From Armatimonadota bacterium (GTDB taxonomy: Bacteria; Armatimonadota; Hebobacteria; CAIYQO01): a DNA stretch of 64,000 bases. Shown piece after piece: positions 1,971 to 19,841 of this stretch (position 1 is the stretch's first letter; every line of letters begins with the position of its first letter). The translations under genes were made by a program, and so were the position numbers. Under the pieces are notes generated by a model, which searched no databases, was not told where the DNA came from, and saw only the letters and a program-made list of their open reading frames with translations. The stretch lies in the NCBI GenBank assembly GCA_038248345.1, contig JBBRXO010000002.1, positions 6,506-70,505 on the forward strand. The letters run 5' to 3'.

Positions 1971-2995
1971 TTATCGACGGACATCTAGACTTGGCGTGGA
2001 ATGCTCTCGCGTTGGGCCGAGATATAACCCAGCCGCTGGCTGTGATTCGCGCCCTTGAAGGTGAAGTACCCGCGCATGGTGCCGGGGTGGCCACCGTATG
2101 CCTCCCTTCCTTGCGTACTGCAGGCGTGCGCGTGGCAATAGCGACAATATTCGCCGCTCCGCACAGCGAGCACCAACCAGACGGATACCACACAGCAGAA
2201 GAAGCCTACGCGCAAGGCAAAGCACAACTTCGCTATTACCAGCAACTGGAAGATGACGGAGAAATACGCATCATCCGCACGCGGCAACAGCTCGCTGAGT
2301 CCATCGCTGGTGAAGGTGCCTCGCCCGGCATCGTCTTGCTCCTAGAGGGCGCGGAACCGCTTCGCACCCCCGCCGACCTGGTGGAGTACTTTGCCGTCGG
2401 TGTGCGCATTGTTGGGCCTGCCTGGCACGCCACCCGCTACGCCGGAGGTACCGGAGAACCGGGGCCACTCACCGTAATGGGAGGGGAATTGCTGCAGGAG
2501 ATGGATCGCCTGGGTGTCGCTTTGGATATCAGCCACCTGGCCGAGGAAGCCTGTACGCAGGCATTTGCGCTTTTCCCTGGCAATATCATCGCTTCCCACT
2601 GCAATGCCCGCCACATTACCGCGGTAGAGCGCAATCTCACCGACGCGCACATGCAGCAAATAGTGGCGCATGGTGGTGTAATCGGCCTCGTACTCTACAA
2701 CCGCTTCATTCGTAATGGTTGGAGCGAAAAAGATGGCAAGGATGCTGTTTCATTGAATCACCTGCTGGAACATGCTCGCTACATCGCGGCGACAATCGGC
2801 GCAAAACATTTGGCGCTCGGGAGTGACATGGACGGCGGGTTGGGGCGTGACGACATCCCATGCGAACTTGATTCCTGCGCTGATTACGCAAAAATTTCCG
2901 CCGCCCTGGCGATGAGCGGCTTCACCGACGAAGAAATTACGGGGATAATGGGCGGCAACTGGGCACGAGTGTTGGATCAACTGCTACCGAGTTAG
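1964..2995 (+). CDS. Membrane dipeptidase (peptidase M19, renal-dipeptidase family)
   Basis: Starts MLIIDGHLDLAWN..., the M19 signature DGHxDL; TAG stop. Confidence 0.7.
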   Translation: MLIIDGHLDLAWNALALGRDITQPLAVIRALEGEVPAHGAGVATVCLPSLRTAGVRVAIATIFAAPHSEHQPDGYHTAEEAYAQGKAQLRYYQQLEDDGEIRIIRTRQQLAESIAGEGASPGIVLLLEGAEPLRTPADLVEYFAVGVRIVGPAWHATRYAGGTGEPGPLTVMGGELLQEMDRLGVALDISHLAEEACTQAFALFPGNIIASHCNARHITAVERNLTDAHMQQIVAHGGVIGLVLYNRFIRNGWSEKDGKDAVSLNHLLEHARYIAATIGAKHLALGSDMDGGLGRDDIPCELDSCADYAKISAALAMSGFTDEEITGIMGGNWARVLDQLLPS

Positions 2996-4438
2996 CAGCG
3001 ATTGCCGTACGATGTCGATGAGCGGTGTAGCGAACAATGCTGCGGCCAATAACAACGCCGCCCCGATAAAGGCGGGGAATATCCCCCACCCGGCGCCATC
3101 CCGCAGGGAAGGCGTAGTCTGGTGTGCCAGCCAGCGCGGTAAAGTGAATCCCACAGCTATTGCCATTAACCCTAATGCGACCACCACTAGCCACGGAGCA
3201 TATAGGATAGGCCAATGGGATTTTAGCGCGATAAACCCCGGTGTTAATGGTACCGCGCAGAGGGACGCCAGTGCCACAATCATACTGACGATAACGACCA
3301 CCCGCTCACTTCGTTCCTTAAGGGTGAGCGCGGGCAATATACCGCCCCCCGCCAGCCACACCAGCATGGCCGATAACCAGGCGAATTGCGTCCAGAGGAT
3401 GCCGCTGATATTGTCTTTCACCCCTGCCCCACCGTGCGCCTGAAAACCTGCCGCCAGTCCCAATAGTAGCATCCCCCCGAGGACGAGCGCGAGCGGGTGC
3501 AGATATGCAAGCGAAATCCGGCGCTTGCGTGCCACTATCGCCAGATACACCTGCCAGATTACTCCACCATAAACGGCGAGCATCCCCCACCCGGCCAGCC
3601 ACACCAGAACCTTATTCAGCAGATATAGTTGATCAATATTCACATTCGGAAGTGCCTGTAACTCGGAACCGGGAAAGGTGAAACAGACCAACCGCACTAG
3701 CGTCAGTACGCCGGTGAGTGCGAGTATCCCCGCCGCCGGTTGCCAGACCATCCGGGCATCTTCACGGCGTAACCATAGCCACCAGGGAAGATATACTGCC
3801 GGGCACAGCATTCCCAGCATCACCATCAGCAAAGCGGCGCTGCTGGCACCTACAGACGAATTCAATAACACCTGCCATAGATTAGTAAGCGGGGCGCCGT
3901 TGGTGATACGCATAAGCCACCAGAGTCCCACCATGCCGAGAACTGCGCAGAGTAACAATACCAGACTGATCTCTACGTCGCGCCAACGCCAGTCAGGGCG
4001 GCAGATATACCACCAGAAGAGATATACCCCTACTGATAACAGCAGCCAGCAACAAAGAGTGAGGGGTTGATTGATACTGAAGAGGAGTAACTCAGCTAGG
4101 AATGTTATAATAAAGATGATGCCAAAGGGGAGAATAGTATTCGGCACCAGACTTCGCCGCGCGGCGGGCACCCAGGAAAGTAACGCCAACGTAAGACCGA
4201 GCAGTGCCGTCCCCCAACAGGAATAGCTATCCGCACGCAGGAGGGGGAATTGCTGTTGCTGCGATCCTATAAATATTGGCTCGATAATGCCAGGGAGCGC
4301 TGCCAGGGATAGCACGGAGATACCCAGGCCTATTGCCACTGCAAACCACGCAGGGGCACGAACTGCCTGCTGGTATTCATGTTCCGGCAAACGACGCAAT
4401 GCCCGGATGGAGAGCGCGTAGATTATCAATGCCCCCAC
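2984..4438 (-). CDS. Polytopic integral membrane protein, function unknown (about 12+ predicted TM helices, W/L-rich)
   Basis: Hydrophobicity pattern of the 484-aa translation; sits at the distal end of the pilus operon. Confidence 0.4.
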   Translation of the reverse strand: MGALIIYALSIRALRRLPEHEYQQAVRAPAWFAVAIGLGISVLSLAALPGIIEPIFIGSQQQQFPLLRADSYSCWGTALLGLTLALLSWVPAARRSLVPNTILPFGIIFIITFLAELLLFSINQPLTLCCWLLLSVGVYLFWWYICRPDWRWRDVEISLVLLLCAVLGMVGLWWLMRITNGAPLTNLWQVLLNSSVGASSAALLMVMLGMLCPAVYLPWWLWLRREDARMVWQPAAGILALTGVLTLVRLVCFTFPGSELQALPNVNIDQLYLLNKVLVWLAGWGMLAVYGGVIWQVYLAIVARKRRISLAYLHPLALVLGGMLLLGLAAGFQAHGGAGVKDNISGILWTQFAWLSAMLVWLAGGGILPALTLKERSERVVVIVSMIVALASLCAVPLTPGFIALKSHWPILYAPWLVVVALGLMAIAVGFTLPRWLAHQTTPSLRDGAGWGIFPAFIGAALLLAAALFATPLIDIVRQSLLTR

Positions 4439-4547: not shown

Positions 4548-6263
4548 CTACTCGGCATATATGACGCGCAATGCCTCTTCCATGGTGGTGATACCTTCCA
4601 GAATCTTCCCCATGGCATCTTGCTTCAGCGATATCATACCTTCATCAAGGGCTGTCTGCCGGATAACATGTGTGGGAGCCTTCTGCAGCACCAACTCACG
4701 TACATCGTTAGTCATCTCCATAAATTCAAAGATGCCCAAACGACCCTTATACCCAGTGCCGCGGCAGAAACTGCACCCAGCTCCACGATAGAAGGTGGCA
4801 TCACTATCCAGCGAGATACCCAGGCGGTGCAATGCTTCTGGCGATGGCGTGTACGATTCTTTGCAACGTGGACAGATGCCGCGCACCAGTCGTTGTGCCA
4901 GGATACCGATAATGGAAGAAGACGAAAGGAACGGCTCAATGCCCATCTCTGTCAAACGTGCGATAGCCCCTGGAGCGTCATTAGTATGCAAGGTACTGAA
5001 TACCAGGTGACCGGTAAGCGCCGCCTCAATAGCGATGGTAGCTGTCTCCTGGTCACGCATTTCACCGACGAGAATAATATCCGGGTCCTGTCGGAGGAAG
5101 GTGCGTAGTACCGCCGGGAAGGTCATGCCCGCACGAACATTCACCGGGGCCTGCGTTAAACCCGCGAGCTGATACTCTACCGGGTCTTCCACAGTAAGGA
5201 TGTTTTTTTCTGGGCTATTGAGTGAGTTCAAGGTAGAATAGAGTGTTGTCGACTTACCCGAACCCGTCGGACCGGTGACAAGGATAATACCATAGCTGCG
5301 GTGTATAAGCCGATCGTAGATTTCCATCATTGCCGTGGGAATGCCGAGTTTACTTAAACTGACGGTGATACCACTCTTGTCGAGTACGCGCATAACGATC
5401 TTTTCGCCATGCACACTCGGGAGCGAAGATACACGAAAATCGTACTCTTTACGATTCATCTTTACTGAAATACGGCCATCCTGCGGGGCGCGTTTCTCGG
5501 AGATATCCATCTCAGCCATAACTTTAATACGGGATAATAACGCCGCCTGCGCCGATTTAGGTACGGTGGTCTCATCCTGCAGAATGCCGTCGATACGATA
5601 ACGTACCCGGACTTTCGTGGCCTCAGGCTGAATGTGAATATCCGAGGCTTTCTCATTCAACGCCTGCTGGATTATCATATTTACCAATTGGATAATTGGC
5701 GCATCGTCTACCAGTTCACGTAGTTTATCCAGCGAGATGTCATCGTCTTCCTTGGTTCCCTCGTAGGAGATCTCCTCACTATCCACGGTGGCTTCATTAA
5801 CAACACGTCGGATGGTTTCATCCATTCGGTCGCCCGAGGAGAATAGCGATGATATTGCGTTACTCAGATCCTCTTCTATAGTAATGACCGGGTCGATCTC
5901 TAACCCAGTAGTAAGGCGAATCTGGTCGATGCTGAAGATATCCAGTGGGTTCTGCATCGCAACAGTCAGACGATTGCCACGTTTGGCGATAGCCAAGGCG
6001 CGGCAACGCTGAATAAGATGCTTGGGAATAAGATTTACAATGTCCTGATCTAATTCGTCTTCACGGATTTCGACAAAAGGGACATTCCACTGCCTGCCCA
6101 AAGCCCGGATGCGATCCCGCTCGCTGATCAGACTCATTTTAACCAGCAGCTGCCCCAGCGGTTCGCGTGTACCTTTCTGCACTTGCAAGGCACGATCGAG
6201 ATCTTCCTGACTCAATCCGGTAAGCTCCATTATTACTGATCCATATAAACGATGTCCTGCCAA
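4548..6263 (-). CDS. pilB: Type IV pilus / type II secretion assembly ATPase (PilB/GspE family)
   Basis: GspE N-terminal domain (MELTGLSQEDLDRALQVQKG...), Walker A GPTGSGKSTTLY, tetracysteine motif CPRC...CSFC; likely TTG start at 6263 with an AGAGGGG RBS (in-frame ATG at 6230). Confidence 0.8.
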   Translation of the reverse strand: MAGHRLYGSVIMELTGLSQEDLDRALQVQKGTREPLGQLLVKMSLISERDRIRALGRQWNVPFVEIREDELDQDIVNLIPKHLIQRCRALAIAKRGNRLTVAMQNPLDIFSIDQIRLTTGLEIDPVITIEEDLSNAISSLFSSGDRMDETIRRVVNEATVDSEEISYEGTKEDDDISLDKLRELVDDAPIIQLVNMIIQQALNEKASDIHIQPEATKVRVRYRIDGILQDETTVPKSAQAALLSRIKVMAEMDISEKRAPQDGRISVKMNRKEYDFRVSSLPSVHGEKIVMRVLDKSGITVSLSKLGIPTAMMEIYDRLIHRSYGIILVTGPTGSGKSTTLYSTLNSLNSPEKNILTVEDPVEYQLAGLTQAPVNVRAGMTFPAVLRTFLRQDPDIILVGEMRDQETATIAIEAALTGHLVFSTLHTNDAPGAIARLTEMGIEPFLSSSSIIGILAQRLVRGICPRCKESYTPSPEALHRLGISLDSDATFYRGAGCSFCRGTGYKGRLGIFEFMEMTNDVRELVLQKAPTHVIRQTALDEGMISLKQDAMGKILEGITTMEEALRVIYAE

Positions 6264-6366
6264 CGTGAACTACCCCTCTTTATTACGGATACTGCCCCGG
6301 TAACATGATATCATACCGGGGCAACTACCGTGTGTCTTTATTTGTACCGATATCAACTCAATTTAG

Positions 6367-7203
6367 CTACAGATTTGGACTAGCCAAATCCTTGACTACA
6401 TTTACAATCATAGAGTTGATGCTGACATTCCCATCTGGTGTGCGGATTTTCACAGAAACTTTTACGGATATCGCCGGGTAGGTGAATCCACCCGCCGGGT
6501 TCGAAATAGGAGTCAACACCGGTGCTGTCCAACTCGGATTACGAATGTTAGCGTTGTCAAATGCGCCTACATCAGGTGTTGCCGACCACTCAAATGTAGC
6601 ATTCCCGTCGATCCCAATATCAGACATAATTGTTTCGGCAGGTTTACTGGCATCAAAAGGGATGTCCAACATCTTCACTCGCTTGCCCGACTCAACGTTT
6701 GAATACAGGAAAGGGTTCTTCGGTGGAACATAAGAATCCTTGAAGATGTTGTCATAGTCAAAGGCGAAATAGACTGAAGTACGCGGTATTACCCGAATAT
6801 TAAGTTCGGAAGTGGTTTCACCCCCAAGCTTCGTCTTCACATGCAGTTTCAACACAATATTTACCGGCTGTTCATCCTTACCAATATTTGGTGCTTGCCA
6901 TACATTCTGCAGCGAATATGGTGCAGTGACCAGAAATATACCCGTTTTAGCAGGATATAGGGGGTCTGGTATGATTGACCACTCAGCGTTTACTACACCG
7001 TTTTTGGTAGCGTCACTTACGGCAACGTCGGCCTTGATATTCAGGGTGGCACCAGAAGGGAAGTTCTGCAAATCCAGCGCATTATCCAAATTCCAGGTTA
7101 TCACCGGATCGAGATCCGGTGAAGGGCCAAAGCATCCGGTTACCCCTATCCCCAATATGAAGAGAGTCGCCGCTACAGATATAATCTTTTGCCATTGTTT
7201 CAT
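6367..7203 (-). CDS. Lipoprotein of unknown function (signal peptide plus lipobox VTGC)
   Basis: MKQWQKIISVAATLFILGIGVTGCFG; AAGGAGGG RBS; 12 nt downstream of the secretin gene, so it is an operon member. Confidence 0.45.
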   Translation of the reverse strand: MKQWQKIISVAATLFILGIGVTGCFGPSPDLDPVITWNLDNALDLQNFPSGATLNIKADVAVSDATKNGVVNAEWSIIPDPLYPAKTGIFLVTAPYSLQNVWQAPNIGKDEQPVNIVLKLHVKTKLGGETTSELNIRVIPRTSVYFAFDYDNIFKDSYVPPKNPFLYSNVESGKRVKMLDIPFDASKPAETIMSDIGIDGNATFEWSATPDVGAFDNANIRNPSWTAPVLTPISNPAGGFTYPAISVKVSVKIRTPDGNVSINSMIVNVVKDLASPNL

Positions 7204-7215
7204 AATAATCCCTCC

Positions 7216-10200
7216 TTAGTGGGCCGGCGGTGCCAATGCCGCCGGAATAGAGATAATTTGTCCTGTCGCGTTGGCCTTAGCCTGCGCATATTTGATGATA
7301 TTCGGTTGTACCACAATCAACAGCTCCTTACGTTGTGGAGATTTCTTTGTCGAGCTGAATAACCAGTTACCGATTAGCGGAATCTGGCCTAGCACCGGGA
7401 TGCTGGTACGGACAACACTATTAGTGGTCTGGATCATGCCGCCGATTACCAGCATCTCTCCGTCGCGAACCTTGACGGTGGTAGAACAGTTACTGGTGGT
7501 AATCACCGGCAGGTCAACCCCGTTATCTCTGCGGAAGGTCGGGTTATCTGTCACTGATGTGGTGATGTCCAAAGTGATGATACCATCGTTGGTAGTTTGC
7601 GGACGAACCTTCATTACTACACCAGTATCAATTGTTTGGGTGGTAAATACCGGCCCGTTATTCGTCTGATTGGTAACGGTCTGGTAGTAAATCTTACCGC
7701 CAGCCTGGAAGACCGTCTCTTTGCCTGACTGTACGGTAGTAGAAGGTCTACTTTCAATTCTCGCTTTATTCGTGGATGTTAGCGCCGCCAGACTAGTGCT
7801 GAAGGCGAGGGGGTCGCGGATTATACGCCCAAGCACTAACGGATTGCCACTCTGCGTTTCTCCGGTACCGATCGTGACCCCACCAGGCGTAACAACGCCG
7901 CCATTCACACCACCCCAGGTGATGCCCAGGTTCTTCACTTGACCTTCGTCAACACTGATAATCGTTGCCGTGATTTGAATCTGCGAAGGCTCAGTATCTG
8001 TCTCAAGTATCTTGGCTTCCGCTAATTTAACGATATCATCCGGACCCGATAGTTGCAAAATAACGTTATCGCTTGCGCCGGCAGTGGCACCGCCAAGTGA
8101 TGCAACTCCAGTACCTGAGTTCGTTGGAGTAGGCGTAGTGCCCATCGTATCAGGGCCAACCGATACCATCAGACCATCTTTGCCATACAGGTCGAGCAAC
8201 ATCGTTTTGGTACTATCAACTTTAACGAAGCGCAGGATCACTTGTCTGATCACTTTTCTCGGCCCATTGTCCAGACTGTTGAGCGTAGCCAAGGCCATCT
8301 CTACTGTCTCTTTGGGCCCCTGTAACTCAAACTTGCCAATCGGCTCTACAATGCTCAATGTCCCATCTGCCTTACGTACCACTGGCATCCCGAGTGAGCT
8401 GTTGCCCGCGGCTAGGCTGAAGATACTCGGCGGCAAGGTGATGATCGTCAACCCCTTAGCCTCATACTGCCCCAGCAGGTAGTTAATCGCCGTCGAGGCC
8501 GGGATGGAATCAACCTTGGTGACTACCTTGGCCATTGGGATATCGACATCCATAGTATTCAGTGATGCCAGCGCACTGTCGATGACATTCTTTGGGCCAT
8601 TCAAAATGATATCGTTGCTGGTCCAATTAGTACTCGTACCGCCAGGCATAGCTGCCCAGTTCGGATTAGGGAGGTAGGATACCTTCAAGCCAGCATCCTT
8701 ATAGCTGTTCTCCAGGTACTGCTTCACCTGTGCCGGAATAAGTGACTTGATATGGTATCTGCTCTCCACAATCGTTGCGGCTGTCGTATTGCCCGCGCCG
8801 GTAGTGGGGAGATCAATGGAGGCAATCAGACCTTTTGCTTCTGCAATGCTGCGCGCCGGACCGACAAGCATCAAGTGTGCATTGACTTCGGTTGCAATAA
8901 TATCCTTATAGGCAATTTTCAACGCCTCAATGGCTGCAGCAGGCGAAATATTTGTCAGTGTCAACACTGCATTGGTACTGGCATCTACATTTACACCCGG
9001 TGCGATATCAATTTTCGCCAGCAAAGTCTTAAGGGATTCGAGATTGTCTTTTGCTCCGACGATGTATATTCGATTGGTTCCCATCCCCATCACCTTCAGG
9101 TCTTTGTAGGTATTGGTGATGGCGGTAGTAGCCTCGGCAATAGTCAACTGCTGCAGTGTGTAGGTAAGATTACCTTCTACTTCAGGATTCCTGTCAATTA
9201 AGTCGAGGAAGTTTTTTGCGCTCTTTAAATTTAACACCGTGCCGATGAGCACGATTTGATTACCAGTCTCACCCACGGGAGCGCTTTTCACATCTTTATA
9301 GGGGAGCTCCAGCGCTTTGGCTACTTCTGCAGGACGCATATACTTCAATGTTACTAACATGTTGGTGATCGGTTCAGGTCCCTGTACCTTTTCAGTGTCA
9401 ATGAAATTAAGGAACTTCACCGCTTCCGCCAGACGTGGCGCGGTGCCCGCCAATACCAGCCGATCTACCGGCAGAAAAACGGTTTTAATGTCCTTATATA
9501 CGGTGCCTAATGCCGCGATGGCGTCCTCCTTGGATAACGCCTGCAGTCGATAGGTCACTGTTTCATCAGGTTGCGGCAAATTAACTGCCGCCGAGGAGGC
9601 GTCAATTAACTCCAGCAAGGATTTCGCCGCTTGAAGGCGCTCGGTAGAACCTAGCAGGAGTACCGTACCATTTGAGAAACCTTTCGCACGAACATCCCGC
9701 GCCGAGAGGCTTATCGCGGTTTCAGCATCAGCCGTCGTCATATTATGGAGCGTTACTACCTGTTGTGTCTCCAGCTGAGGATTTGTCCCGTTTGTACTTG
9801 GACTGTTTAGAACATTCAGGAAGGAGACGGCGGCCTTCAGCCGTGATGGCGCCCCCATGAGCACAATCCGACTATCCTTCATGGACTTTACCGTGACATC
9901 TTTGAAAACCACACCCAGTGCTGCTTCTGCATCCGCAGCAGTAACGTTATCCAGTTTCACTACCTGATATATCTCGGAAGCGCTTGTCCCGGAAATTGAG
10001 GCTGCGGTAAAATCCAACTGATCGATGAAAGATTTAGCGGCCTTGATTCGTGAAATTGAACCCACCAGCAGTACCCGGCCATCGACCGTCTTAACCTGCA
10101 CGTCCTTATACATTACCCCCAGCGCAGCCTCGACATCAGCCGGACTGATCTTTTGTAATGTCAAAATTGCGATCTGTTGATTTTGCACACCGTATTGGTC

Positions 10201-10539
10201 ATCGAGCGCCTTGGCGGTATTCACCACGTAGGTGCCATTGACACTTCGGTATGAATACTCGGTCATGCCGGTGATGACAGACAACGCTTCATCTACTGTC
10301 ATGTCGCTCAGGCGTAAGCTGATTGGGCCTTTGACCGTCGGTGAGATTACGATGTTTGTCCCCGTCGCGGTAGCCAGAGCCTGCAGTACTACCGGCAATT
10401 CAGCATTGACGAAATTCAATGACTGAATCTTCGTTTCTGCGTACGCCGAGCTTACTGCTACTGTCAATGCCAGAATAATTGCGACCTTAGCCGCCCGGCT
10501 CAATCGATAGAGATTTGCGATTATTCGTGCTCCTATCAT
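7216..10539 (-). CDS. pilQ: Type IV pilus secretin (PilQ/GspD family) with an N0-like domain followed by about 9-10 tandem 60-70-aa secretin-N-type repeats and a C-terminal secretin domain
   Basis: Signal peptide; recurring motif (A/I)ALG.VYKDV.V.....R(V/I)(L/V)L.G....L..AK.(F/L)(L/I)..(L/I)D about seven times; C-terminal ...SIPVLGQIPLIGNWLFSSTKKSPQRKELLIVVQPNII secretin signature; ATGA overlap with upstream pilP. Confidence 0.8.
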   Translation of the reverse strand: MIGARIIANLYRLSRAAKVAIILALTVAVSSAYAETKIQSLNFVNAELPVVLQALATATGTNIVISPTVKGPISLRLSDMTVDEALSVITGMTEYSYRSVNGTYVVNTAKALDDQYGVQNQQIAILTLQKISPADVEAALGVMYKDVQVKTVDGRVLLVGSISRIKAAKSFIDQLDFTAASISGTSASEIYQVVKLDNVTAADAEAALGVVFKDVTVKSMKDSRIVLMGAPSRLKAAVSFLNVLNSPSTNGTNPQLETQQVVTLHNMTTADAETAISLSARDVRAKGFSNGTVLLLGSTERLQAAKSLLELIDASSAAVNLPQPDETVTYRLQALSKEDAIAALGTVYKDIKTVFLPVDRLVLAGTAPRLAEAVKFLNFIDTEKVQGPEPITNMLVTLKYMRPAEVAKALELPYKDVKSAPVGETGNQIVLIGTVLNLKSAKNFLDLIDRNPEVEGNLTYTLQQLTIAEATTAITNTYKDLKVMGMGTNRIYIVGAKDNLESLKTLLAKIDIAPGVNVDASTNAVLTLTNISPAAAIEALKIAYKDIIATEVNAHLMLVGPARSIAEAKGLIASIDLPTTGAGNTTAATIVESRYHIKSLIPAQVKQYLENSYKDAGLKVSYLPNPNWAAMPGGTSTNWTSNDIILNGPKNVIDSALASLNTMDVDIPMAKVVTKVDSIPASTAINYLLGQYEAKGLTIITLPPSIFSLAAGNSSLGMPVVRKADGTLSIVEPIGKFELQGPKETVEMALATLNSLDNGPRKVIRQVILRFVKVDSTKTMLLDLYGKDGLMVSVGPDTMGTTPTPTNSGTGVASLGGATAGASDNVILQLSGPDDIVKLAEAKILETDTEPSQIQITATIISVDEGQVKNLGITWGGVNGGVVTPGGVTIGTGETQSGNPLVLGRIIRDPLAFSTSLAALTSTNKARIESRPSTTVQSGKETVFQAGGKIYYQTVTNQTNNGPVFTTQTIDTGVVMKVRPQTTNDGIITLDITTSVTDNPTFRRDNGVDLPVITTSNCSTTVKVRDGEMLVIGGMIQTTNSVVRTSIPVLGQIPLIGNWLFSSTKKSPQRKELLIVVQPNIIKYAQAKANATGQIISIPAALAPPAH

Positions 10540-11279
10540 TTGCTACCTCCTGCTATGATTTGCTTGTTACGTTTCCCATCCGTTACAGACATACTACTAT
10601 CTGTTATTCTAGTCACGCTCCACCCGGAACCGGGGATCGCCTGACCCTTAACCACTTGATAATACTGACCATTAAACATGCCGAATGCCATCGGGCGCGC
10701 CTCTGTCATAATGATTCCGCGGAGTCCAAAATCGGGCACCGGCGGCTCAACATCAGCTGCGAGTAACAGGTTGTACGCTTCTAACACTTCCATCGAAGGC
10801 CCTTCTAACGTGAGCATACCGTTTTTAATGGTAACAGTTACACCTGATTTTTCTACAACTGCTTTGGCTGTCTCGCCGTCAATCCACAACAGCTTGTGCG
10901 GTTCACTCTTCATTTTAATATCATCAGACGAATAGTCCGTCCTACCATCGGGCAATTTCCCTATTCCTGTTTTTGAGGTACCAGTTGTACCTTCCGAAAC
11001 CGGTGGTTCAACTGTCACAACATCGTCTTTTTTCTTCTCACCGACAAATGGATCACGAACTATCTCACCGACGAGATTATCTACACTCCTGTTGCGCGCC
11101 CAGTCTAAAGGGGCGGACGCTGGTAGAGCATCAACAGTTGTCGTAGATGTTGTAGCCGGCTTGGTTGCGTTAGAAGGTGCCGGGGTTGTCGGTTTGATGG
11201 TGAAATAAACTGCAACCAGCAATCCTACCAGCATTACTCCTAATACAATATATTGAATTGTCTGTTTATTCATGCTCAT
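10536..11279 (-). CDS. PilP-like pilus assembly protein (assigned mainly by position between pilO and pilQ; N-terminal TM anchor, low-complexity linker, C-terminal beta-rich domain)
   Basis: Gene order pilM-N-O-[this]-Q with ATGA overlaps on both sides. Confidence 0.45.
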   Translation of the reverse strand: MSMNKQTIQYIVLGVMLVGLLVAVYFTIKPTTPAPSNATKPATTSTTTVDALPASAPLDWARNRSVDNLVGEIVRDPFVGEKKKDDVVTVEPPVSEGTTGTSKTGIGKLPDGRTDYSSDDIKMKSEPHKLLWIDGETAKAVVEKSGVTVTIKNGMLTLEGPSMEVLEAYNLLLAADVEPPVPDFGLRGIIMTEARPMAFGMFNGQYYQVVKGQAIPGSGWSVTRITDSSMSVTDGKRNKQIIAGGSK

Positions 11280-11986
11280 TTCGCCTCCCCTCCCTTCAAC
11301 TTGGCCGCCTTAACTACATCAGATTCTTTCTGATTCTGCGAGGGAATAATAATCGCATACGTTTCGATCGATGTAGTTATCTGCATCTTGCCATCTTTAA
11401 TCCCGGAAGGAGTCACCGCAATCGACTTGACGTAAACTAGCTTCTGGAAATTTCGGAGACCATCAAGAAACTTCATCAAACTGGTGTAAGTTCCGTTAAT
11501 TGTAAGGCTTATCTTCATCACCTGCGTAGCATTAGCCGGAGCCTTCGGGGCTGCGGCGGGTGTCGCCGCGGCTGCATCCGTAGGTGCGGGTGGCGGCGGA
11601 GGTGCCTGGCTAGCGAATGGCCCCTTTGTAGGATCAAACGGTTTGATATCACCTGGGTTGATTACAATCAGGTCGTTCCCCGTATTAAAAGCGACTTTCT
11701 GAATCTGCTCCAAGTAGGTCGGGAGGTACTTAACGTCTGTTAGATCCTTGTCAAGCTCACCCTGTAATAATATGTTCCGCTCCAATTCCGCTTTCAATTC
11801 ACCTTTTTTGTCTAACTTCTCTTTTAACTCCTTGATCTGCTTCCTGGTGTCCGCATTGGCGGTCACCTTCTTGGTTACCTCAATCATCTGCATTTGATAA
11901 CCGACTACTCCAAGGGCCATAATAACCAGGCCTATGGCGATTATGATGACAAGTGCGATAGTGAAACGAGAATTACTCTTTTGCAT
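11276..11986 (-). CDS. pilO: PilO-like type IV pilus assembly protein (TM anchor, coiled coil, periplasmic domain, Pro/Ala-rich linker)
   Basis: Architecture and position in the pilMNOPQ operon. Confidence 0.55.
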   Translation of the reverse strand: MQKSNSRFTIALVIIIAIGLVIMALGVVGYQMQMIEVTKKVTANADTRKQIKELKEKLDKKGELKAELERNILLQGELDKDLTDVKYLPTYLEQIQKVAFNTGNDLIVINPGDIKPFDPTKGPFASQAPPPPPAPTDAAAATPAAAPKAPANATQVMKISLTINGTYTSLMKFLDGLRNFQKLVYVKSIAVTPSGIKDGKMQITTSIETYAIIIPSQNQKESDVVKAAKLKGGEAK

Positions 11987-12570
11987 TATAAGTCTCCTCC
12001 TTTCATATCTGCAATTGGAACCGTTACTTCAAAATGTACAGATTTTACTGTGTTGCCCGGGCCAGGCTCAATACTAATGGTACCGACTTTGGTCTTTTCG
12101 TTAGCGGCCCAGTCTGTCTTCGACAAGCTGACCATGTACTCTCCCAACGTTTTCTCATCTGGGGCAGAGCCAGCCATCTTGATATCGACACCTTTATCAG
12201 TGCTGTTAACAGTGAAACTTGTAATCGTTACACCTGGAAAAGCAAGGCTGATCTTACTGACATCCGCCAGAATGATCATCCACACTGCTTCGCTTACTCG
12301 CACTTGATTAATCAGCATAATGTGCGGTTTTATCTTATCAATTTCGCTCTGGATTGCATCGTATTCCTTCTTGGATTCCATCCTTGAATCAAGATCAGCT
12401 TTTTGGTATACCTGGTCTCTGCTCTATGTCGCCAAGGATATCCCCGCAGCCACATTGAGACCTATCATCGCAACGAGCACCACTACTACGAACATAGATG
12501 ACCATCTGATGATGTTCATCTCGCGCAATCGTTTGGCGCGGCGCTCGGCGATCAAGTTAATATTGATCAT
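11986..12570 (-). CDS. pilN: PilN-like pilus assembly protein whose reading frame contains one in-frame TAG stop (codon 49, at 12426..12424) between the TM anchor (MININLIAERRAKRLREMNIIRWSSMFVVVVLVAMIGL...) and the periplasmic domain (track ORF 11986..12381)
   Basis: My own translation of the minus strand from the ATG at 12570..12568 (ATGA overlap with the pilM stop); same frame as the 11986..12381 ORF; classic PilN N-terminus. Confidence 0.55.
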
Positions 12571-13715
12571 CGGCGTGGCTCCTTTTCAAATGCGAGCATC
12601 GGCTCCCGCAATGCGAGTCCCAAAGCCGTAGAAAGTAGCGGTAGCTGGGATTCCAGACCCTCAGCGCCTTCTGGCAAGAGTAGTGCGCCAGAATGGATTA
12701 CATTCAATACCTGCACCGGCACTCCGAGTTGTCCGGCAAGGTATTCGCACAGGCCATTCATTTTTGCAGTGCCGCCTGTAAGAATAACTCGCGAGACACC
12801 TTGGATGGCTGCTGAATCTGGCGTCCGCTGGTAATCATAGAAAGCGAAGGATCGGCGAATCTCGCGAACAAGCTCTTCCAACTCTGGCTCCAGCGCCCGG
12901 CTGGCTTCCTGCCCCAGTGGTGTTAGCATCGCCCGGTCGACTTCATCTGTTACCACCTTAACTTCGTTTTCCTTAACTTCTTCCGCTTGCGATGAACTAA
13001 TGCCCATTGCAGAAGCGATTGCCTCCGTTAGTGCATTGCCCGCAGATGCTACTGATCGTGTCAGTTTGAAGACTCCATCCGAGACGATAGTGATGGAAGT
13101 ATAGGTCGCGCCAATATCAACTAATGCCACGGTCTCCTGTACTTGCGACCCCTGCATTAATTCCACTGCGCTTCTCATCAAGGCAAACGGTTCCAGTTCG
13201 ATGGCAAGTGGTTCTAATCCAGCCTGTTCCAGCGCCTGGACACGACGATCCACCAGATCTCGCGGGGTGGCTGCCAACATGACGTCCATTTGCGGTGTAC
13301 CATCAGCTGCGCTGGTGCCCAGAATCTGCAACTCCACCAGGCTATCTTCTACCGGGAAGGTTATGTAATTACGCGCTTCCCAGTAAATTGATTTGCGTAA
13401 CTGGTTCTCTGGCATAGATGGTAGCAATACCTGACGTATTACCACCGAAGGCCCAGCCACCGCGGCAATTGCCAACGGAGTCTGAATCCCTAAAGTCTGC
13501 AACAGTGTATGAATTGCTTCAGCTACTGCCAACTGATTATCAACGACACCCAGCTTGATAGCGTCGGGCGGCGTTGGCGTGCTTCCGGCATGTGTCAGCA
13601 GGTAACCATTGCGTGTATATACGACTTCCACTACCTTAATTGAGTGGCTGCCGATATCAATTCCCACGGTCTCACTGGTGCCGGAGAATCTGCTCAACAG
13701 ATTCATATCTGGCAA
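12567..13715 (-). CDS. pilM: Type IV pilus assembly ATPase-fold protein PilM (actin/FtsA-like)
   Basis: MPDMNLLSRFSGTSETVGIDIGSHSIKVVEV... and overall PilM-like length and order. Confidence 0.8.
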   Translation of the reverse strand: MPDMNLLSRFSGTSETVGIDIGSHSIKVVEVVYTRNGYLLTHAGSTPTPPDAIKLGVVDNQLAVAEAIHTLLQTLGIQTPLAIAAVAGPSVVIRQVLLPSMPENQLRKSIYWEARNYITFPVEDSLVELQILGTSAADGTPQMDVMLAATPRDLVDRRVQALEQAGLEPLAIELEPFALMRSAVELMQGSQVQETVALVDIGATYTSITIVSDGVFKLTRSVASAGNALTEAIASAMGISSSQAEEVKENEVKVVTDEVDRAMLTPLGQEASRALEPELEELVREIRRSFAFYDYQRTPDSAAIQGVSRVILTGGTAKMNGLCEYLAGQLGVPVQVLNVIHSGALLLPEGAEGLESQLPLLSTALGLALREPMLAFEKEPRR

Positions 13716-13785
13716 CTCCTCTCCCGATGCGAATACTATGCATCAATCCTGACTCTAGAATATCAACTACTGACATACTACCAGG

Positions 13786-16506
13786 TTATTTCTTACTAAT
13801 CAACGCGTATGTACCACTCGTGGTATTGTAGGTAGCTTCCATATTCAGTGTCTTCGCCAGGAAGCTTAACGGAACCATTGTACGGTTTCCAACAATATGT
13901 GCCGGTCGTTTCAGGTCTATAATATCGCTATTCACCTTGGCTTGTGCTGATTCAATCTGGACATCAACAAATGACCCATTTGCCCAGGCATTCACTGCCT
14001 GATTCTTCTCTAACCAGACTACTACGCCACCCTTGGCTTCAATCAGCATACGCATCGGCACCATCGCTACGTCATTCACTACATACGGTGATGGGTAATA
14101 CGCGCCGCTGGCAATTACCGGCTTGTTATCTAAGTATATTCTTCCATTCGCCAACGGAACGATAATCTCCTTTTCCGGGACAAATTGAATTCCTGGGTTA
14201 AGCTGTTGTAACTCTACCGGGGAACTATGATATGCTTCTGCGATGGAATTGATCGAATCACCTTGTCTGATAATATAGCTGGACTGTGCGCTGATATTTG
14301 ACCCTATCGGGGTTACATCGATATTTGTTGCAACTGGCACACTAGCAATAATCGTTGTAAAGTAACTCGCTGCCTCGGTATCGTTGGCTTGATATGAGCG
14401 CGGTAGCTCACTGTAGCTGCTGATGCCAGGATAGTCAATGCTCATGTTAGCCGCACTGACTGATGGCAATGATGCTAATGACAACCAGGCAGGTCGGCTG
14501 AACGATGTGCCAGCTTTGGCATAGCCAGCAACTTCATTATGTCCCGGCTGGCCAGGGGTGATCTCATGGGTGCGGGTGGTAGAAGTGTAAGCGGCGTAAT
14601 TGTTGACTTCACCATTCCCTGTCTGGCGGCGGGGCGCGGCAAACATCCCTTGCACCGGGGCAATGATTGTTCTTTCCGCTACTCCTGGAGTATTGGGGGA
14701 TGCCGGTACACCGAAACTGGTTTCGCTCTTAATATTCCCAGCACCTACCGTTGAATATGCTTGCGGCGTCTTCGGCACATTCGGATTAATAGTCCGGGCA
14801 TTTGCAACATCAGAAATCACCGCATTGTGTGCAGGCATTTTACTTCCCGGCGTTACCGCCAGGATAGTCATCGTCGAATTGTATTGAGGGGTTCCTACAT
14901 TGGTTGATGCAGTGGCTACAGCTGGCGACATTGGAACAGCGTAGTTACTGCCTGAATAATTATTCCCGACTTTTATCGAGGCCATCAGTATCGGTAAGAC
15001 TTTTTCGTCTGGTGATATCGGCCTACTATTAACCGCGCCCGCCACTATTGCAACATTTCCGGGTAATCCGGCTACCGGCTGCTCGGTGAGATTCACCATC
15101 AAAGCATTATTTTGTGGGCTGCCCGAGGTGAGCAATTGGTGCGCTGGTGTGTCATTCAGGTTGATGTTCGGCATAGTTGTGGCCATTACCATTCCGAGTG
15201 GATTAGTCGAACCAATAGTTGTTCCACCGTTCGCAATGGCGGCATTCAGTACCGGTGTTGTAGCCAATGCCGGACTTACTTTGTTAACGATCTCCTTCGG
15301 CAATGTAGTATAGGTCGGAAATTCGCGGCCTAACATTGGATTCATGGCATCGACCGGAGCGCCGACCGTCAGCTGTGCTGGCGAATATGCATTGTAACCG
15401 ACCGCCGGGACAATGATCGGATTGCGCATCGGTGTATATGACGTATAGGTATTCAATGGAGCCAGAGAATTTCCCTTATATGCCAATGCCATCGGGGTAG
15501 TTAACCCATATGCGCGCAATGGTGATGAGCTGGCAAATACGTTGTTCAGTGACTTATTACTTACAGGTACCAGCGCGATGAGATCCTGCAAAATGCCGGG
15601 GGTATACATCTTCGGGCGTGCTGACAGGCCATAAGCCAGCATGGGGACGCCGTAATCTGCGCGGGAGGCGAAGGGCATGTCATTTACGCTACCGAGCATT
15701 GTCGGATGGGATAACCCCAGATAATCATTTAGATTGATCGATTTCGTCGAAGGGTACAGGTTGTTTAAGAACGTCTCAACTCTCTGTGATGGATCGTGCC
15801 CTACTCTTACTGCGACCACCGGGCTGACTGCACGGTTATCAGATATATCGAGAGCTGAGGCGGATAGAACATATTCGCCGGGAGTTAGTTTCGCTTTAAT
15901 TGGATCCCAGGAGATCGTGTATGGGTATTCACTGGTGATACCGTAGGGGACATTGTTGACATACACCGTGATATATTTGATGCCGGCATCACCTGATGCT
16001 TCTACTTTAATATTTACCGGGCCGACGATCTCTGCCCCATTTGTCGGGCTGATGATCCGCACAGTAGGAGGAGTGACCTTCTTGGGAGCGATGGTATTCT
16101 GCAGATAGAAACTCACCTGACGCTCCGCATAACGACCGCGGGTATCGGACAGGCGAATGTTAAATACGTGCGTACCAGGCTCCAACATCGGAGTATAGAC
16201 ACTTAGATCACCGTCGATGCGGAAGGAATAAGACTGCCCCGGCTGGGCTTTGGCTAGATTAACATCACCCTTTATGAAGCGACGCCCATCGATGGTAGTC
16301 TCGTAATGATTAATTTGTGCGTCAATGGGATTGACGAACTGCACGGCCACCGGAAAGGCCGAAGTGGAGATGGGATTATTGGGCAACGGCAGTAATAACT
16401 GCATTTGCATGCCACCATCTTGTGCCTGCACCGGAACGACCACGGCTAATAACGTGAGCGCGAGGGCAACTACAAACAACCCGAACTGAGATCGACTTCC
16501 CATCAT
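13786..16506 (-). CDS. Large secreted envelope protein: signal peptide, N-terminal Ig-like domains, about 400-aa S/T/A/P/N-rich low-complexity linker, LysM-like motif (YIIRQGDSINSIAEAY...), C-terminal copper-amine-oxidase-N-terminal-like (stalk) domain
   Basis: Domain motifs read from the translation; only about 70 bp upstream of pilM on the same strand; candidate sigma70 promoter (TTGACT-N17-TAATTT on the minus strand) about 100 nt upstream of its AGGAGG RBS. Confidence 0.5.
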   Translation of the reverse strand: MMGSRSQFGLFVVALALTLLAVVVPVQAQDGGMQMQLLLPLPNNPISTSAFPVAVQFVNPIDAQINHYETTIDGRRFIKGDVNLAKAQPGQSYSFRIDGDLSVYTPMLEPGTHVFNIRLSDTRGRYAERQVSFYLQNTIAPKKVTPPTVRIISPTNGAEIVGPVNIKVEASGDAGIKYITVYVNNVPYGITSEYPYTISWDPIKAKLTPGEYVLSASALDISDNRAVSPVVAVRVGHDPSQRVETFLNNLYPSTKSINLNDYLGLSHPTMLGSVNDMPFASRADYGVPMLAYGLSARPKMYTPGILQDLIALVPVSNKSLNNVFASSSPLRAYGLTTPMALAYKGNSLAPLNTYTSYTPMRNPIIVPAVGYNAYSPAQLTVGAPVDAMNPMLGREFPTYTTLPKEIVNKVSPALATTPVLNAAIANGGTTIGSTNPLGMVMATTMPNINLNDTPAHQLLTSGSPQNNALMVNLTEQPVAGLPGNVAIVAGAVNSRPISPDEKVLPILMASIKVGNNYSGSNYAVPMSPAVATASTNVGTPQYNSTMTILAVTPGSKMPAHNAVISDVANARTINPNVPKTPQAYSTVGAGNIKSETSFGVPASPNTPGVAERTIIAPVQGMFAAPRRQTGNGEVNNYAAYTSTTRTHEITPGQPGHNEVAGYAKAGTSFSRPAWLSLASLPSVSAANMSIDYPGISSYSELPRSYQANDTEAASYFTTIIASVPVATNIDVTPIGSNISAQSSYIIRQGDSINSIAEAYHSSPVELQQLNPGIQFVPEKEIIVPLANGRIYLDNKPVIASGAYYPSPYVVNDVAMVPMRMLIEAKGGVVVWLEKNQAVNAWANGSFVDVQIESAQAKVNSDIIDLKRPAHIVGNRTMVPLSFLAKTLNMEATYNTTSGTYALISKK

Positions 16507-16676
16507 AATTCCTCCTGGCGGCGCGGCTTACACCTGCGATCTATGACGTCTATTTTCCGACTCATAGCGGTTTGCCGATCCACTGGTTGTACACTATTGT
16601 TTAAATTATCATAAGAACGGGTCTAAGTCAATATCTTTTTCAATGTTTGAGAAAATAGACAAGTCTTCATTTTTTG

Positions 16677-16785
16677 TTGGGGCACATGGCATGTGCCCTC
16701 TATACGGGATATGGGATTATATGACCAATTGTAAGGTATGATTACGACATGGGCACAAGCCTTTTGCCCCTATAATCGGGTTGTT
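16677..16785 (+). repeat. Double-hairpin intergenic repeat, copy A (GGGGCACATGG/CATGTGCCC ... GGGCACAAGCC/TTTTGCCCC)
   Basis: About 90% identical to 43467..43575 and reverse-complement-similar to 19865..19958. Confidence 0.7.
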
Positions 16786-16856
16786 GTTTGCTTGCCGCTC
16801 AATTTTTCGGCTTACAATTATGTACAGATTCTCTGCGTGCCGATATTTCAACCCCA

Positions 16857-17960
16857 CTACCCCAGCACCTTCTCCAACGCGGCAACGAATTTTTTATTTT
16901 CCGCTTCCGTCCCGAAGGTCACCCTGATCATTGTCGGGTAGCCGAAGATGTCGCCAGTGCGTACGATCACTCCCTGTTTCAGCAACTGCTGGAACACCTC
17001 ACGGCACGGTTTGCCGGTATCTACCAGCACAAAGTTGGCCTCACTGGGGACGTAGGTAAGACCCAGCCGATCAAACGCGCCATAGAGCAGCACCTTGCCC
17101 GCTTCGTTGGCGGCGATACTACGCGGGATCTGCTCGGGATCGTTGAGGCTGGCGATGGCCGCCCACTGCGCCAGATTCGCCACGTTGAATGGCTCGCGCA
17201 CCTGGTTCAACGCCGTCATCACCTCCGGGCGGCTACTCACTCCATAGCCGACGCGCAAACCTGCGAGGGCGTAGATCTTCGAAAAGGTGTGCAACACGAT
17301 GACGTTTTTGCCCGCCTTCACATACTCCATCGCCGAACCAAAGGCCGGGTTGGTCGCATACTGATAATATGCCTCGTCCAGCACCACCAGCACGTGCTCC
17401 GGCACGCGTGCAATGAAGGAATCCACTTCCGCCTTAGTATTCACCGCTCCAGTGGGGTTGTGCGGGTTGGCGATATACAACAGTTTTGTGTTGGGGGTGA
17501 TCGCTGCCAGCATCCCCTCCAGATCATGAGCGAAATCAGCGCGCAGCTCCACCTTCACCGGGACAGCGCCCATCAATAAGGTGCTGATCTCGTACATACT
17601 GAAAGGCGGGTCGCCCATCACCACTTCGTCGCCCGGCTCCAGATAGGCAGTGGCGAGGAAATGCATTACCTCGTCGCTGCCGCGTCCGGCGATTATCTGC
17701 CCGGCTTCCACGCCGAGAGTAGCCGCCAGTGCTGTGCGTAATTCAAAGCTATCGTTATCGGGATAGAGGCGGACATCACGCAGGTGCTCCTGCATCGCCG
17801 CAACTGCCAGCGGTGACGGCCCCAGCGGGTTCTCGTTCGACGCCAGTTTGATGATCGACTTCGGATCCAGTCCCAACTCACGTGCCACTTCCTCAATCGG
17901 CTTCCCCGGCGAATACGGCGTAATCGCGTCAATAGCTGCTCTGTATGATGTCTTACTCAT
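16857..17960 (-). CDS. hisC: Histidinol-phosphate aminotransferase
   Basis: KLASNENPLGPSPLAV..., class II aminotransferase motifs, about 367 aa. Confidence 0.8.
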   Translation of the reverse strand: MSKTSYRAAIDAITPYSPGKPIEEVARELGLDPKSIIKLASNENPLGPSPLAVAAMQEHLRDVRLYPDNDSFELRTALAATLGVEAGQIIAGRGSDEVMHFLATAYLEPGDEVVMGDPPFSMYEISTLLMGAVPVKVELRADFAHDLEGMLAAITPNTKLLYIANPHNPTGAVNTKAEVDSFIARVPEHVLVVLDEAYYQYATNPAFGSAMEYVKAGKNVIVLHTFSKIYALAGLRVGYGVSSRPEVMTALNQVREPFNVANLAQWAAIASLNDPEQIPRSIAANEAGKVLLYGAFDRLGLTYVPSEANFVLVDTGKPCREVFQQLLKQGVIVRTGDIFGYPTMIRVTFGTEAENKKFVAALEKVLG

Positions 17961-18066
17961 TGGTTCTCCTATCGCATAACTCTTTGCACTATTTTATCTC
18001 TTTCTCCTTTTAGAAGCAAACCATAAGGTCTGGTCAATCATTCAATAAAATGCTCTCTGTGCTTCT

Positions 18067-18160
18067 AATTCACAGGATTTCAGGATACGACAAAGATATC
18101 AAGGATAAAATATATATCTTATCCTTCCAATACACACTATCCTGTATATCCTGTGAATTA
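18067..18160. promoter_or_regulatory. Nested palindromes upstream of amt (aattcacaggat ... atcctgtgaatt, inner aaggataa/ttatcctt); candidate operator
   Basis: 12-bp perfect inverted repeats about 70 bp apart, read directly from the sequence. Confidence 0.3.
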
Positions 18161-18314
18161 AAACTATACAATCAACTGCTACGTAACAAACATTTAACAA
18201 TTCGACACATCCCGGCAATCTGCGTACACAGCCGCGCAACATTGAGTGGATATCATATAAACGTAACCTTCACACTTGCGTGGAGATATTGTATCCAGAA
18301 AGGGAGGAGTAACG

Positions 18315-19841
18315 ATGAAAAAGATGAGAGAACACCTTGAAGGTATCTCGATGTGGCGACTGGCAATTCTGGTCGCTATGCTGCTGACGCTGGGCGCGGT
18401 AGCGATGGCACAGGGGGCAGGCGCTGATGTGCTGCCTATGGATGCGCAAGCCATTACCGATGCTGTAAAAGATGCGAAGTCCGCTGGTGTTTCAGCGGGA
18501 GATACCGCGTGGATGCTCATGGCCACCGCGCTGGTACTCCTCATGACTCCGGGGCTGGCGCTCTTCTACGCAGGTATGGTACGCCGCAAGAATGCACTCG
18601 GAACTATCATGCAAAGCTTTATGGCCATGGCAGTCATCAGCATTCAATGGGTATTGATCGGCTACACGCTGGCCTTTGGCCCCACCATTAACGGGTGGAT
18701 CGGCGGCATGTCGTGGGCAGGTTTGAACGGCGTCACCGGCGTGCCCAATGCCGATTATGCGGCGACCATTCCGCACTTGGTCTTTATGGCGTTCCAAATG
18801 ATGTTCGCCATCATCACCCCGGCGCTCATCTTCGGCGCAGTGGCAGAACGTATGAAGTTCAAGGCTTTCATAATCTTCCTGCTGCTCTGGGCGACCATTA
18901 TCTATGATCCGCTGGCACACTGGGTATGGGGCTTCAACGGCTTGTTGCGCCCTGGGCAATTATTCGCCCAACTTGGCTTCGGCAGTGGCGCCATGGCTTT
19001 GGACTTCGCTGGTGGTCTAGTAGTGCACATCTCGGCTGGTATCACCGCACTGGTGGCAGCGCTGGTACTCGGCAAGCGCCGCGGCTATCCGCATGAACCA
19101 ATGCCACCGCACAACCTGCCCATGACCGTTCTCGGCGCTGCTCTCTTATGGTTCGGTTGGTTCGGCTTCAATGCCGGCTCTGCTCTGGGAGCCAATGGAT
19201 TGGCGGGCTACGCCTTCGTCAACACCAATACCGCCACTGCCGCTGCAGTACTGGCCTGGGTATTTATCGAATGGATGCACCATGGCAAGCCGACTGTCCT
19301 CGGTGCGGCCTCCGGCGCGGTGGCTGGCCTGGTCGCCATTACCCCTGCTGCTGGCTTTATTCAACCGTGGGCGGCCATCCTTATCGGCCTGGCGGCTGGT
19401 GGTATCTGTTACGGAGCCGTCAATCTGCGCTTCAAGCTCGGATACGATGACAGCCTCGACGCTTTTGGCGTACACGGCATCGGTGGTATGCTCGGCGCTA
19501 TTCTCACCGGTGTCTTCGCCACCACCGCAGTCAACCCGGCGGGCGCCAACGGACTGCTCTACGGCAACCCGGCGCAATTGGGAATCCAATTGTTATCGGT
19601 TTTGATCTCGGTAGTATTCTGCGGCGTGGGCGCATTCCTGCTGCTCAAGCTTACCAGTCTGGTCACCGGCGGCCTGCGCCTCTCCAAGGCCGAGGAAGCC
19701 GAAGGTATGGATATCAGCGAACACGGCGAGAATGGCTACAACCTGGGCGACATCCCACTGGGACACGGCGGCAGCCCCGCCCCGGTAGGCCATCACCCCG
19801 CCCCCATTCCCTCGCTGGCAGCAGCGAAGGCCATGGAGTAA
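18315..19841 (+). CDS. amt: Ammonium transporter (Amt family)
   Basis: Amt-family motifs (DFAGGLVVHISAG..., GAVAERMKF); start chosen at MKKMREH with a GGGAGGAG RBS. Confidence 0.85.
   Translation: MKKMREHLEGISMWRLAILVAMLLTLGAVAMAQGAGADVLPMDAQAITDAVKDAKSAGVSAGDTAWMLMATALVLLMTPGLALFYAGMVRRKNALGTIMQSFMAMAVISIQWVLIGYTLAFGPTINGWIGGMSWAGLNGVTGVPNADYAATIPHLVFMAFQMMFAIITPALIFGAVAERMKFKAFIIFLLLWATIIYDPLAHWVWGFNGLLRPGQLFAQLGFGSGAMALDFAGGLVVHISAGITALVAALVLGKRRGYPHEPMPPHNLPMTVLGAALLWFGWFGFNAGSALGANGLAGYAFVNTNTATAAAVLAWVFIEWMHHGKPTVLGAASGAVAGLVAITPAAGFIQPWAAILIGLAAGGICYGAVNLRFKLGYDDSLDAFGVHGIGGMLGAILTGVFATTAVNPAGANGLLYGNPAQLGIQLLSVLISVVFCGVGAFLLLKLTSLVTGGLRLSKAEEAEGMDISEHGENGYNLGDIPLGHGGSPAPVGHHPAPIPSLAAAKAME

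Follow-up and report, generated by a model that had tools for sequence, protein, structure and literature searches.

The pilN gene of an uncultured Armatimonadota bacterium is interrupted by an in-frame amber codon located directly after the region encoding its transmembrane (TM) segment. This TAG allele is derived, is unique to the assembly in which it was found and is the only lesion in the gene. On balance, it is probably a real and very recent single-base nonsense mutation (GAG, encoding Glu49, to TAG, with the changed base at position 12426) that affects an otherwise intact pilus operon of the strain or sub-population from which the assembly derives. All positions refer to the whole stretch of 64,000 nucleotides (hereafter the window).

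On the minus strand, the ATG at 12570, which is preceded by an AAGGAG Shine-Dalgarno sequence 8 nt upstream, overlaps the pilM stop codon as ATGA (pilM TGA, 12569..12567) and opens a run of 48 sense codons, MININLIAERRAKRLREMNIIRWSSMFVVVVLVAMIGLNVAAGISLAT, that is followed by TAG at 12426..12424. Past the TAG, the same frame is open for another 145 codons up to a TAA (11988..11986) that overlaps the pilO start codon as TAATG. The first ATG after the TAG, at 12381, corresponds to codon 64 of the full frame and is the start of a 131-aa ORF. The open frame beyond the TAG is not a chance occurrence because the read-through product matches full-length proteins from other sources: a 194-aa protein from an independent assembly (P0015) agrees with it at all 193 other residues, and a second protein (P0001) shows 81% identity to it. 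Translation thus bears out all the coordinates given in the first-pass annotation of this DNA, namely, those of the start codon, the 48 codons, the TAG and the 131-aa ORF; its identification of the gene as pilN, with the amber codon placed directly after the TM segment, agrees with the homologs, the TM prediction and the operon position (Table 1).

Table 1. Coordinates, strand and supporting evidence for pilN, the amber codon and the neighboring pilus genes in the window
Feature	Position	Strand	Evidence and state
pilN 5' fragment, codons 1-48 and premature TAG	12424..12570	-	Sequence and ORF reading; N-terminus MININLIAERR and a single TM helix (~residues 24-46)
Premature amber TAG, codon 49	12424..12426	-	Changed base 12426: T on the coding (minus) strand, G in relatives; GAG (Glu) to TAG
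Rest of the pilN frame, codons 50-194 and TAA	11986..12423	-	Periplasmic coiled-coil and ferredoxin-like core; open, base-identical to the intact allele
131-aa ORF from the internal ATG, codon 64	11986..12381	-	Fragment as called in the NCBI record (P0002)
pilM, actin-like ATPase fold, cytoplasmic partner of the PilN N-terminus	12567..13715	-	PF11104, 183.5 bits; TIGR01175, 232.9 bits; intact, no difference from L001
pilO	11276..11986	-	PF04350, 27.9 bits (cut-off 22); intact, identical in L001
pilP-like gene, 247 aa	10536..11279	-	TIGR03021, 21.9 bits, below the cut-off of 34.65; intact, identical in L001
pilQ secretin, 1107 aa	7216..10539	-	PF00263, 129.9 bits, and Secretin_N, GspD N0 domain and STN; intact; the exact protein is also present in SRR19962012
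PilB-type assembly ATPase (T2SSE and MshEN)	4548..6263	-	PF00437, 452.6 bits; PF05157, 63.2 bits; intact

The comparison with related loci shows that the interruption is confined to the window. The protein database contains 13 homologs, each a single protein of 189-194 aa that covers 100% of the read-through query; besides these, the only match to this query is the window's own 131-aa piece (P0002). The 26 related loci that were compared came from Logan, ENA, GTDB genomes and JGI metagenomes; contig ends truncate two of them, and in each of the 24 complete ones PilN is encoded without any internal stop, at a length of 189-198 aa. No other members carrying the stop were found in the clusters of the 48-aa and 131-aa pieces, leaving the TAG allele in one record only, and a 29-nt pattern of the site, with N at the variable base, had no matches either in the GTDB representative genomes or in the JGI metagenomes. 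Exact-match look-ups of the 131-aa and 48-aa pieces and of four other proteins of the window (693, 646, 582 and 571 aa) likewise retrieved no entry. One of the related loci, L001, is a Logan contig from the run SRR19962012, for which a full-text literature search found no paper. This contig aligns with positions 18570..6299 of the window at 99.951% identity, with six mismatches and no gaps over 12,272 bp. Codon 49 of the L001 pilN, the gene for P0015, is GAG (Glu), and the rest of this gene is base-identical to that of the window, as are pilM, pilO, the pilP-like gene and pilQ. Glutamate is also encoded at this position in all five other closest orthologs, for example by GAG in L002, L011 and L012 and by GAA in L003.

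The six differences between the window and L001 consist of three synonymous transitions in a hisC-like gene, two missense transitions in the gene for a 906-aa protein, and the TAG/GAG difference at 12426, which is the sole transversion among them. When polarised on L002, an 88% identical outgroup, the TAG of the window is the derived state; of the two missense differences in the 906-aa protein, A283V is derived in L001 and G386D is derived in the window. The three synonymous transitions, at 17253, 17258 and 17283, are packed in 31 bp of the hisC-like gene (16857..17960, minus strand), and all are derived in the window relative to L002; they resemble the trace of a short recombination tract or of a multi-nucleotide event more than a set of independent mutations.

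Although divergent, the read-through product is a genuine PilN, and its gene lies within a pilM-N-O-P-Q operon, which the neighboring genes identify as one for type IVa pili (T4aP). By the published description, PilN begins with a short cytoplasmic stretch that carries a conserved PilM-binding motif, crosses the membrane once and continues in the periplasm with a coiled-coil and a core that heterodimerises with PilO (PMC5805733). In the window protein and its homologs, the N-terminal residues 1-11 (MININLIAERR) are invariant in 14 sequences and align with residues 2-12 of the Myxococcus xanthus PilN (MIRINLLPVRA) in a profile-to-PDB match; thus, by sequence, a putative PilM-binding motif is present at the cytoplasmic N-terminus. 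This short N-terminus is followed by a single TM segment: hydrophobicity peaks in the 19-mer that begins at residue 26 (Kyte-Doolittle mean, 2.6), and nothing comparable is found later in the protein. For the remaining part of the protein, the AlphaFold model of the intact allele (pLDDT 81) consists of a helix spanning residues 2-110 followed by a beta-beta-alpha-beta-beta arrangement, i.e. a predicted periplasmic coiled-coil and a ferredoxin-like core similar to those of PilO and GspL. The best Foldseek neighbours of this model include the periplasmic domains of GspL (XcpY, PulL and EpsL), PilO of Pseudomonas aeruginosa (5uvr and 2rjz) and PilN of Thermus thermophilus (4bhq), all with a probability of 1.00 and target-normalised TM-scores of 0.43-0.76, and with E-values of only 2e-3 to 5e-2.

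The searches of Pfam and NCBIfam with the window's own pilN pieces produced sub-threshold PilN matches only; for PF05137, the scores were 12.9 bits for the read-through translation and 14.1 bits for the 131-aa piece, below the gathering cut-off of 22.8. Accordingly, the assignment to PilN rests on the homologs, the profile-to-PDB comparison and the structure model, and the window pilN is placed in a divergent Armatimonadota branch of the family. A precomputed PF05137 match is available for 8 of the 13 database homologs, and the comparison of the family profile with the PDB retrieved the M. xanthus PilN (3jc8) with E = 5.5e-6, over profile positions 1-156, an alignment that spans the position of the TAG.

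The gene order pilM-pilN-pilO-pilP-pilQ, in which the assignments of PilM, PilO and the secretin are clear-cut and that of PilP is weak, is common to L001 and L002. The pilO gene has its own GGAGG Shine-Dalgarno sequence ~8 nt upstream of the start codon (context AAAGGAGGAGACTTATAATG). In the 247-aa gene at the pilP position, the TIGR03021 match is confined to the C-terminal 30 residues, and there is no Pfam match of note; the pilP call is supported by the location of this gene between pilO and pilQ, and the gene product may be a divergent PilP analogue in this lineage.

Several features of the neighboring genes deserve mention. The start of pilM is ambiguous: the mechanically called ORF begins with TTG at 13715 (382 aa) whereas the Logan gene call begins with ATG at 13706 (379 aa), and the latter is the likelier start, with GGAGAGGAG ~9 nt upstream. 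The 3' end of the L002 pilM (4866..6014 in that locus) differs in frame or length, ending in ...HADDQY with a 14-nt overlap into pilN, whereas the window pilM ends in ...EKEPRR with the 4-nt ATGA overlap, so that the window and L002 lineages differ by a small indel close to the PilM C-terminus. Directly upstream of pilM is the gene for the 906-aa protein (13786..16506, minus strand), which contains Big_7, LysM and Cu_amine_oxidN1 domains. PilQ is unusually long and contains, between the N0/STN region and the secretin core, eight tandem modules of ~64-69 aa, recognizable by a YKD/FKD/ARD motif (residues 144, 212, 280, 348, 414, 478, 544 and 613); Pfam calls only three of these modules as Secretin_N. 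The gene for the PilB-type ATPase is flanked by a 278-aa ORF (6367..7203, minus strand) and a 484-aa ORF (2984..4438, minus strand), both with no Pfam match. The 278-aa gene, which is located directly after pilQ, is kept in L001 and L002; the L002 version encodes 262 aa, with a different C-terminus and stop codon.

The case for a recent mutation is built on the facts that all orthologs are single-piece, PilN functions as one chain, the sister strain is intact and the outgroup L002 has GAG. The mutation appears to be recent because pilN shows no further differences from L001, and pilM, pilO, the pilP-like gene and pilQ show none at all. Besides the TAG, the window and L001 differ at five positions, three of them synonymous, which amounts to ~4e-4 differences per base. 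Short-read consensus error is ~1e-5 per base or lower, and given that the observed divergence far exceeds this typical level, any one difference is, a priori, more likely to reflect a real variant. The other five differences can be taken as real variation because three of the five are synonymous, a distribution that is seldom expected of random errors.

Nevertheless, it is a realistic, if less favored, possibility that the true codon is GAG (Glu49) and pilN is intact, the TAG being one wrong base introduced into the MAG contig by sequencing, consensus calling or assembly. The TAG allele is represented in a single record, and the only other assembly of the strain has GAG, in a pilN that is otherwise identical at every base; the rest of the operon is untouched, as would be expected if nothing were really wrong with it. 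Furthermore, the change from G to T (or C to A on the other strand), the sole transversion among the six differences, is a known signature of library damage; both artefacts of oxidative damage and genuine 8-oxoG mutagenesis typically produce it. Selection should also act against a nonsense mutation in a core gene when the operon is tightly coupled and otherwise perfectly conserved, unless loss of the pilus is tolerated or favored. Apart from the three clustered synonymous changes, the changes derived in the window across the 12 kb are one missense mutation and the TAG nonsense mutation, a pattern that would also fit a slightly error-prone consensus. Weighing against an error, consensus substitution errors are rare compared with the real variation observed here, and, by our own estimate, ~4-5% of random substitutions create a stop codon. 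Moreover, the window assembly is not error-ridden: there are no indels relative to L001 over the 12,272 bp, and no other obviously broken genes were seen in the 64 kb, the window being tiled by intact ORFs. All things considered, we favor the recent nonsense mutation.

The two remaining open segments of the frame could be thought to encode a genuine two-piece PilN, in which a membrane anchor of 48 aa and a domain of 131 aa translated independently of it would assemble non-covalently. Both ORFs are indeed open, the second one with an ATG of its own, and related modules are divided differently in nature, as PilM plus PilN in pilus systems and as a single GspL in type II secretion. However, the split is absent from all 24 complete loci as well as from the 99.95%-identical strain. 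The sequence around the internal ATG, GATTCAAGGATG, contains an AAGG that abuts the ATG, with no spacing, whereas pilN and pilO have AAGGAG and GGAGG, respectively, ~8 nt upstream. The N-terminus of the 131-aa piece, MESKKEYDAIQSEIDK, is charged, and residues 64-194 include no hydrophobic N-terminal segment, TM segment or signal peptide; given the lack of an N-terminal hydrophobic segment, the product would stay in the cytoplasm rather than reach the periplasm where PilN acts (PMC5805733). The piece also would start in the middle of a helix, considering that codon 49 and Met64 are both located inside a continuous predicted helix, with pLDDT of at least 90 over residues 21-70, and residues 49-63 would be encoded by neither piece. 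With the split not conserved, and the downstream piece devoid of a spaced Shine-Dalgarno sequence and an export signal, a two-piece PilN is close to refuted and is, in our estimate, very improbable. Most likely, the 131-aa ORF is an annotation by-product and not an independent gene.

Another explanation holds that the nonsense mutation is real but leaky, such that near-cognate or suppressor-tRNA read-through of the UAG would provide a reduced amount of full-length PilN and support a pilus at a lower level. The basal read-through of UAG in bacteria is in the range of ~1e-3 to 1e-2, and the frame downstream of the TAG is perfectly preserved. This preservation, however, is equally explained by recency because the intact allele is base-identical. 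In addition, the stop is not conserved in any relative, the 24 complete loci having sense codons at this position, GAG/GAA or others, and conserved genes that terminate in TAG do so at the expected C-terminus. No unusual structure is seen in the RNA 3' of the TAG: the predicted fold of 121 nt around and 3' of the TAG has an energy of -18.5 kcal/mol (z = -0.39 relative to shuffled sequences), with no stimulatory structure, and the sequence that follows the TAG follows a sense codon in L001. The tRNA scan of the 64-kb window detected no tRNA genes, a result that says nothing of suppressors elsewhere in the genome. Altogether, a leaky stop appears unlikely. Structured or programmed read-through was rejected in view of the lack of conservation of the stop and the RNA z-score.

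Reassignment or recoding of TAG in this organism, through pyrrolysine incorporation or a genome-wide amber reassignment, has in its favor the in-frame TAG itself and nothing more. More long ORFs in the window terminate with TAG than with either of the other stops: 28 of the 71 ORFs of at least 150 aa (a set in which some are spurious shadow ORFs) do so, among them the hisC-like gene and an M19 dipeptidase gene, in accord with the first-pass annotation, which had pointed to these two genes as examples of TAG serving as a normal stop. In the window, L001 and L002 alike, the hisC-like reading frame closes with TAG at a conserved ...KVLG C-terminus, a second stop lies two codons later, and the codon orthologous to the pilN TAG encodes Glu instead of being a conserved TAG. 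The use of TAG as a terminator, the C-terminus of the hisC-like gene and the Glu codon in the orthologs refute reassignment for practical purposes, and its probability is negligible.

The first-pass annotation had put forward four explanations for the stop, of which a sequence error and a recent nonsense mutation are retained whereas a two-piece PilN and read-through are strongly disfavored. It had also proposed the comparison of orthologs, in which, as described above, all 24 complete loci turned out to carry a single intact pilN and the 99.95%-identical strain GAG. Intact relatives, with no evidence of suppression, are an outcome that it had listed as a refutation, and this is the outcome that we observed, which counts against the split gene and read-through.

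If the TAG is a real nonsense mutation, translation would end after 48 residues and would yield a stub with the PilM-binding motif and the TM helix but no exported periplasmic domain. The truncated PilN would be unable to pair with PilO or to recruit PilP and PilQ, and the alignment subcomplex would be lost or severely reduced, along with pilus assembly; such a loss or strong reduction of pilus assembly is to be expected because PilMNOP are critical for the function of T4aP (PMC5805733). The pilO gene and the genes downstream of it would still be translatable from their own ribosome-binding sites, given that pilO has its own GGAGG, although the levels of PilO and the downstream products may fall because translation is no longer coupled through TAATG and because transcription may show polarity. 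More speculatively, the 48-aa stub could, in principle, still occupy PilM. There is a slim chance that the TAG allele is not only real but is maintained as a tolerated or useful state. It could then be a pilus-off variant, as would fit selection by pilus-dependent phages, with the stub still occupying PilM and acting as a dominant-negative brake, or a variant in which low-level read-through of the UAG tunes the dosage of PilN.

Whether a nonsense allele or a base error, the event described here is of a known type, in a gene family that is itself known, and does not represent a new kind of split or recoded gene. For annotation, this implies that the 48-aa and 131-aa ORFs are to be merged into one pilN with an internal stop, flagged either as a pseudogene or with a 'low-quality sequence' exception, and that any inference of working type IV pili in this MAG needs the caveat of an interrupted pilN. 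If reads confirm the T allele, it would offer a small, clean case of a pilus-off variant that segregates in a population of uncultured Armatimonadota, and no new mechanism would be involved.

In its general features, the window pilN resembles the ordinary nonsense pseudogenes and loss-of-function pilus alleles of natural populations, with which it shares the single derived base, the intact allele in a near-identical strain and the untouched neighbors. It differs from ordinary nonsense pseudogenes in showing no secondary decay, which indicates that the change is either very young or not real. With the PilN proteins of T4aP (PF05137; 3jc8 of M. xanthus and 4bhq of T. thermophilus), the window copy has in common the position between pilM and pilO, the overlapping start and stop codons, the N-terminal motif, the one TM helix, and the long helix followed by the beta-beta-alpha-beta-beta core. 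It departs from them in the premature TAG at codon 49, i.e. in not being encoded as one uninterrupted polypeptide, and its N-terminal motif is INLIAERR, in contrast to the INLLP-type motif of proteobacterial PilN. The best structural match to the PilN model comes from the GspL proteins (XcpY, EpsL and PulL), namely 6ghu_A, with a TM-score of 0.76 normalised to the target, a probability of 1.00 and E = 2.2e-3. GspL of type II secretion consists of a PilM-like cytoplasmic domain fused to a TM segment and a periplasmic domain, and so demonstrates that this module tolerates other partitions of its domains. The TAG in the window, in contrast, would part the TM anchor from the periplasmic domain, and we know of no system in which these two are separate, as a functional split in this pilN would need them to be.
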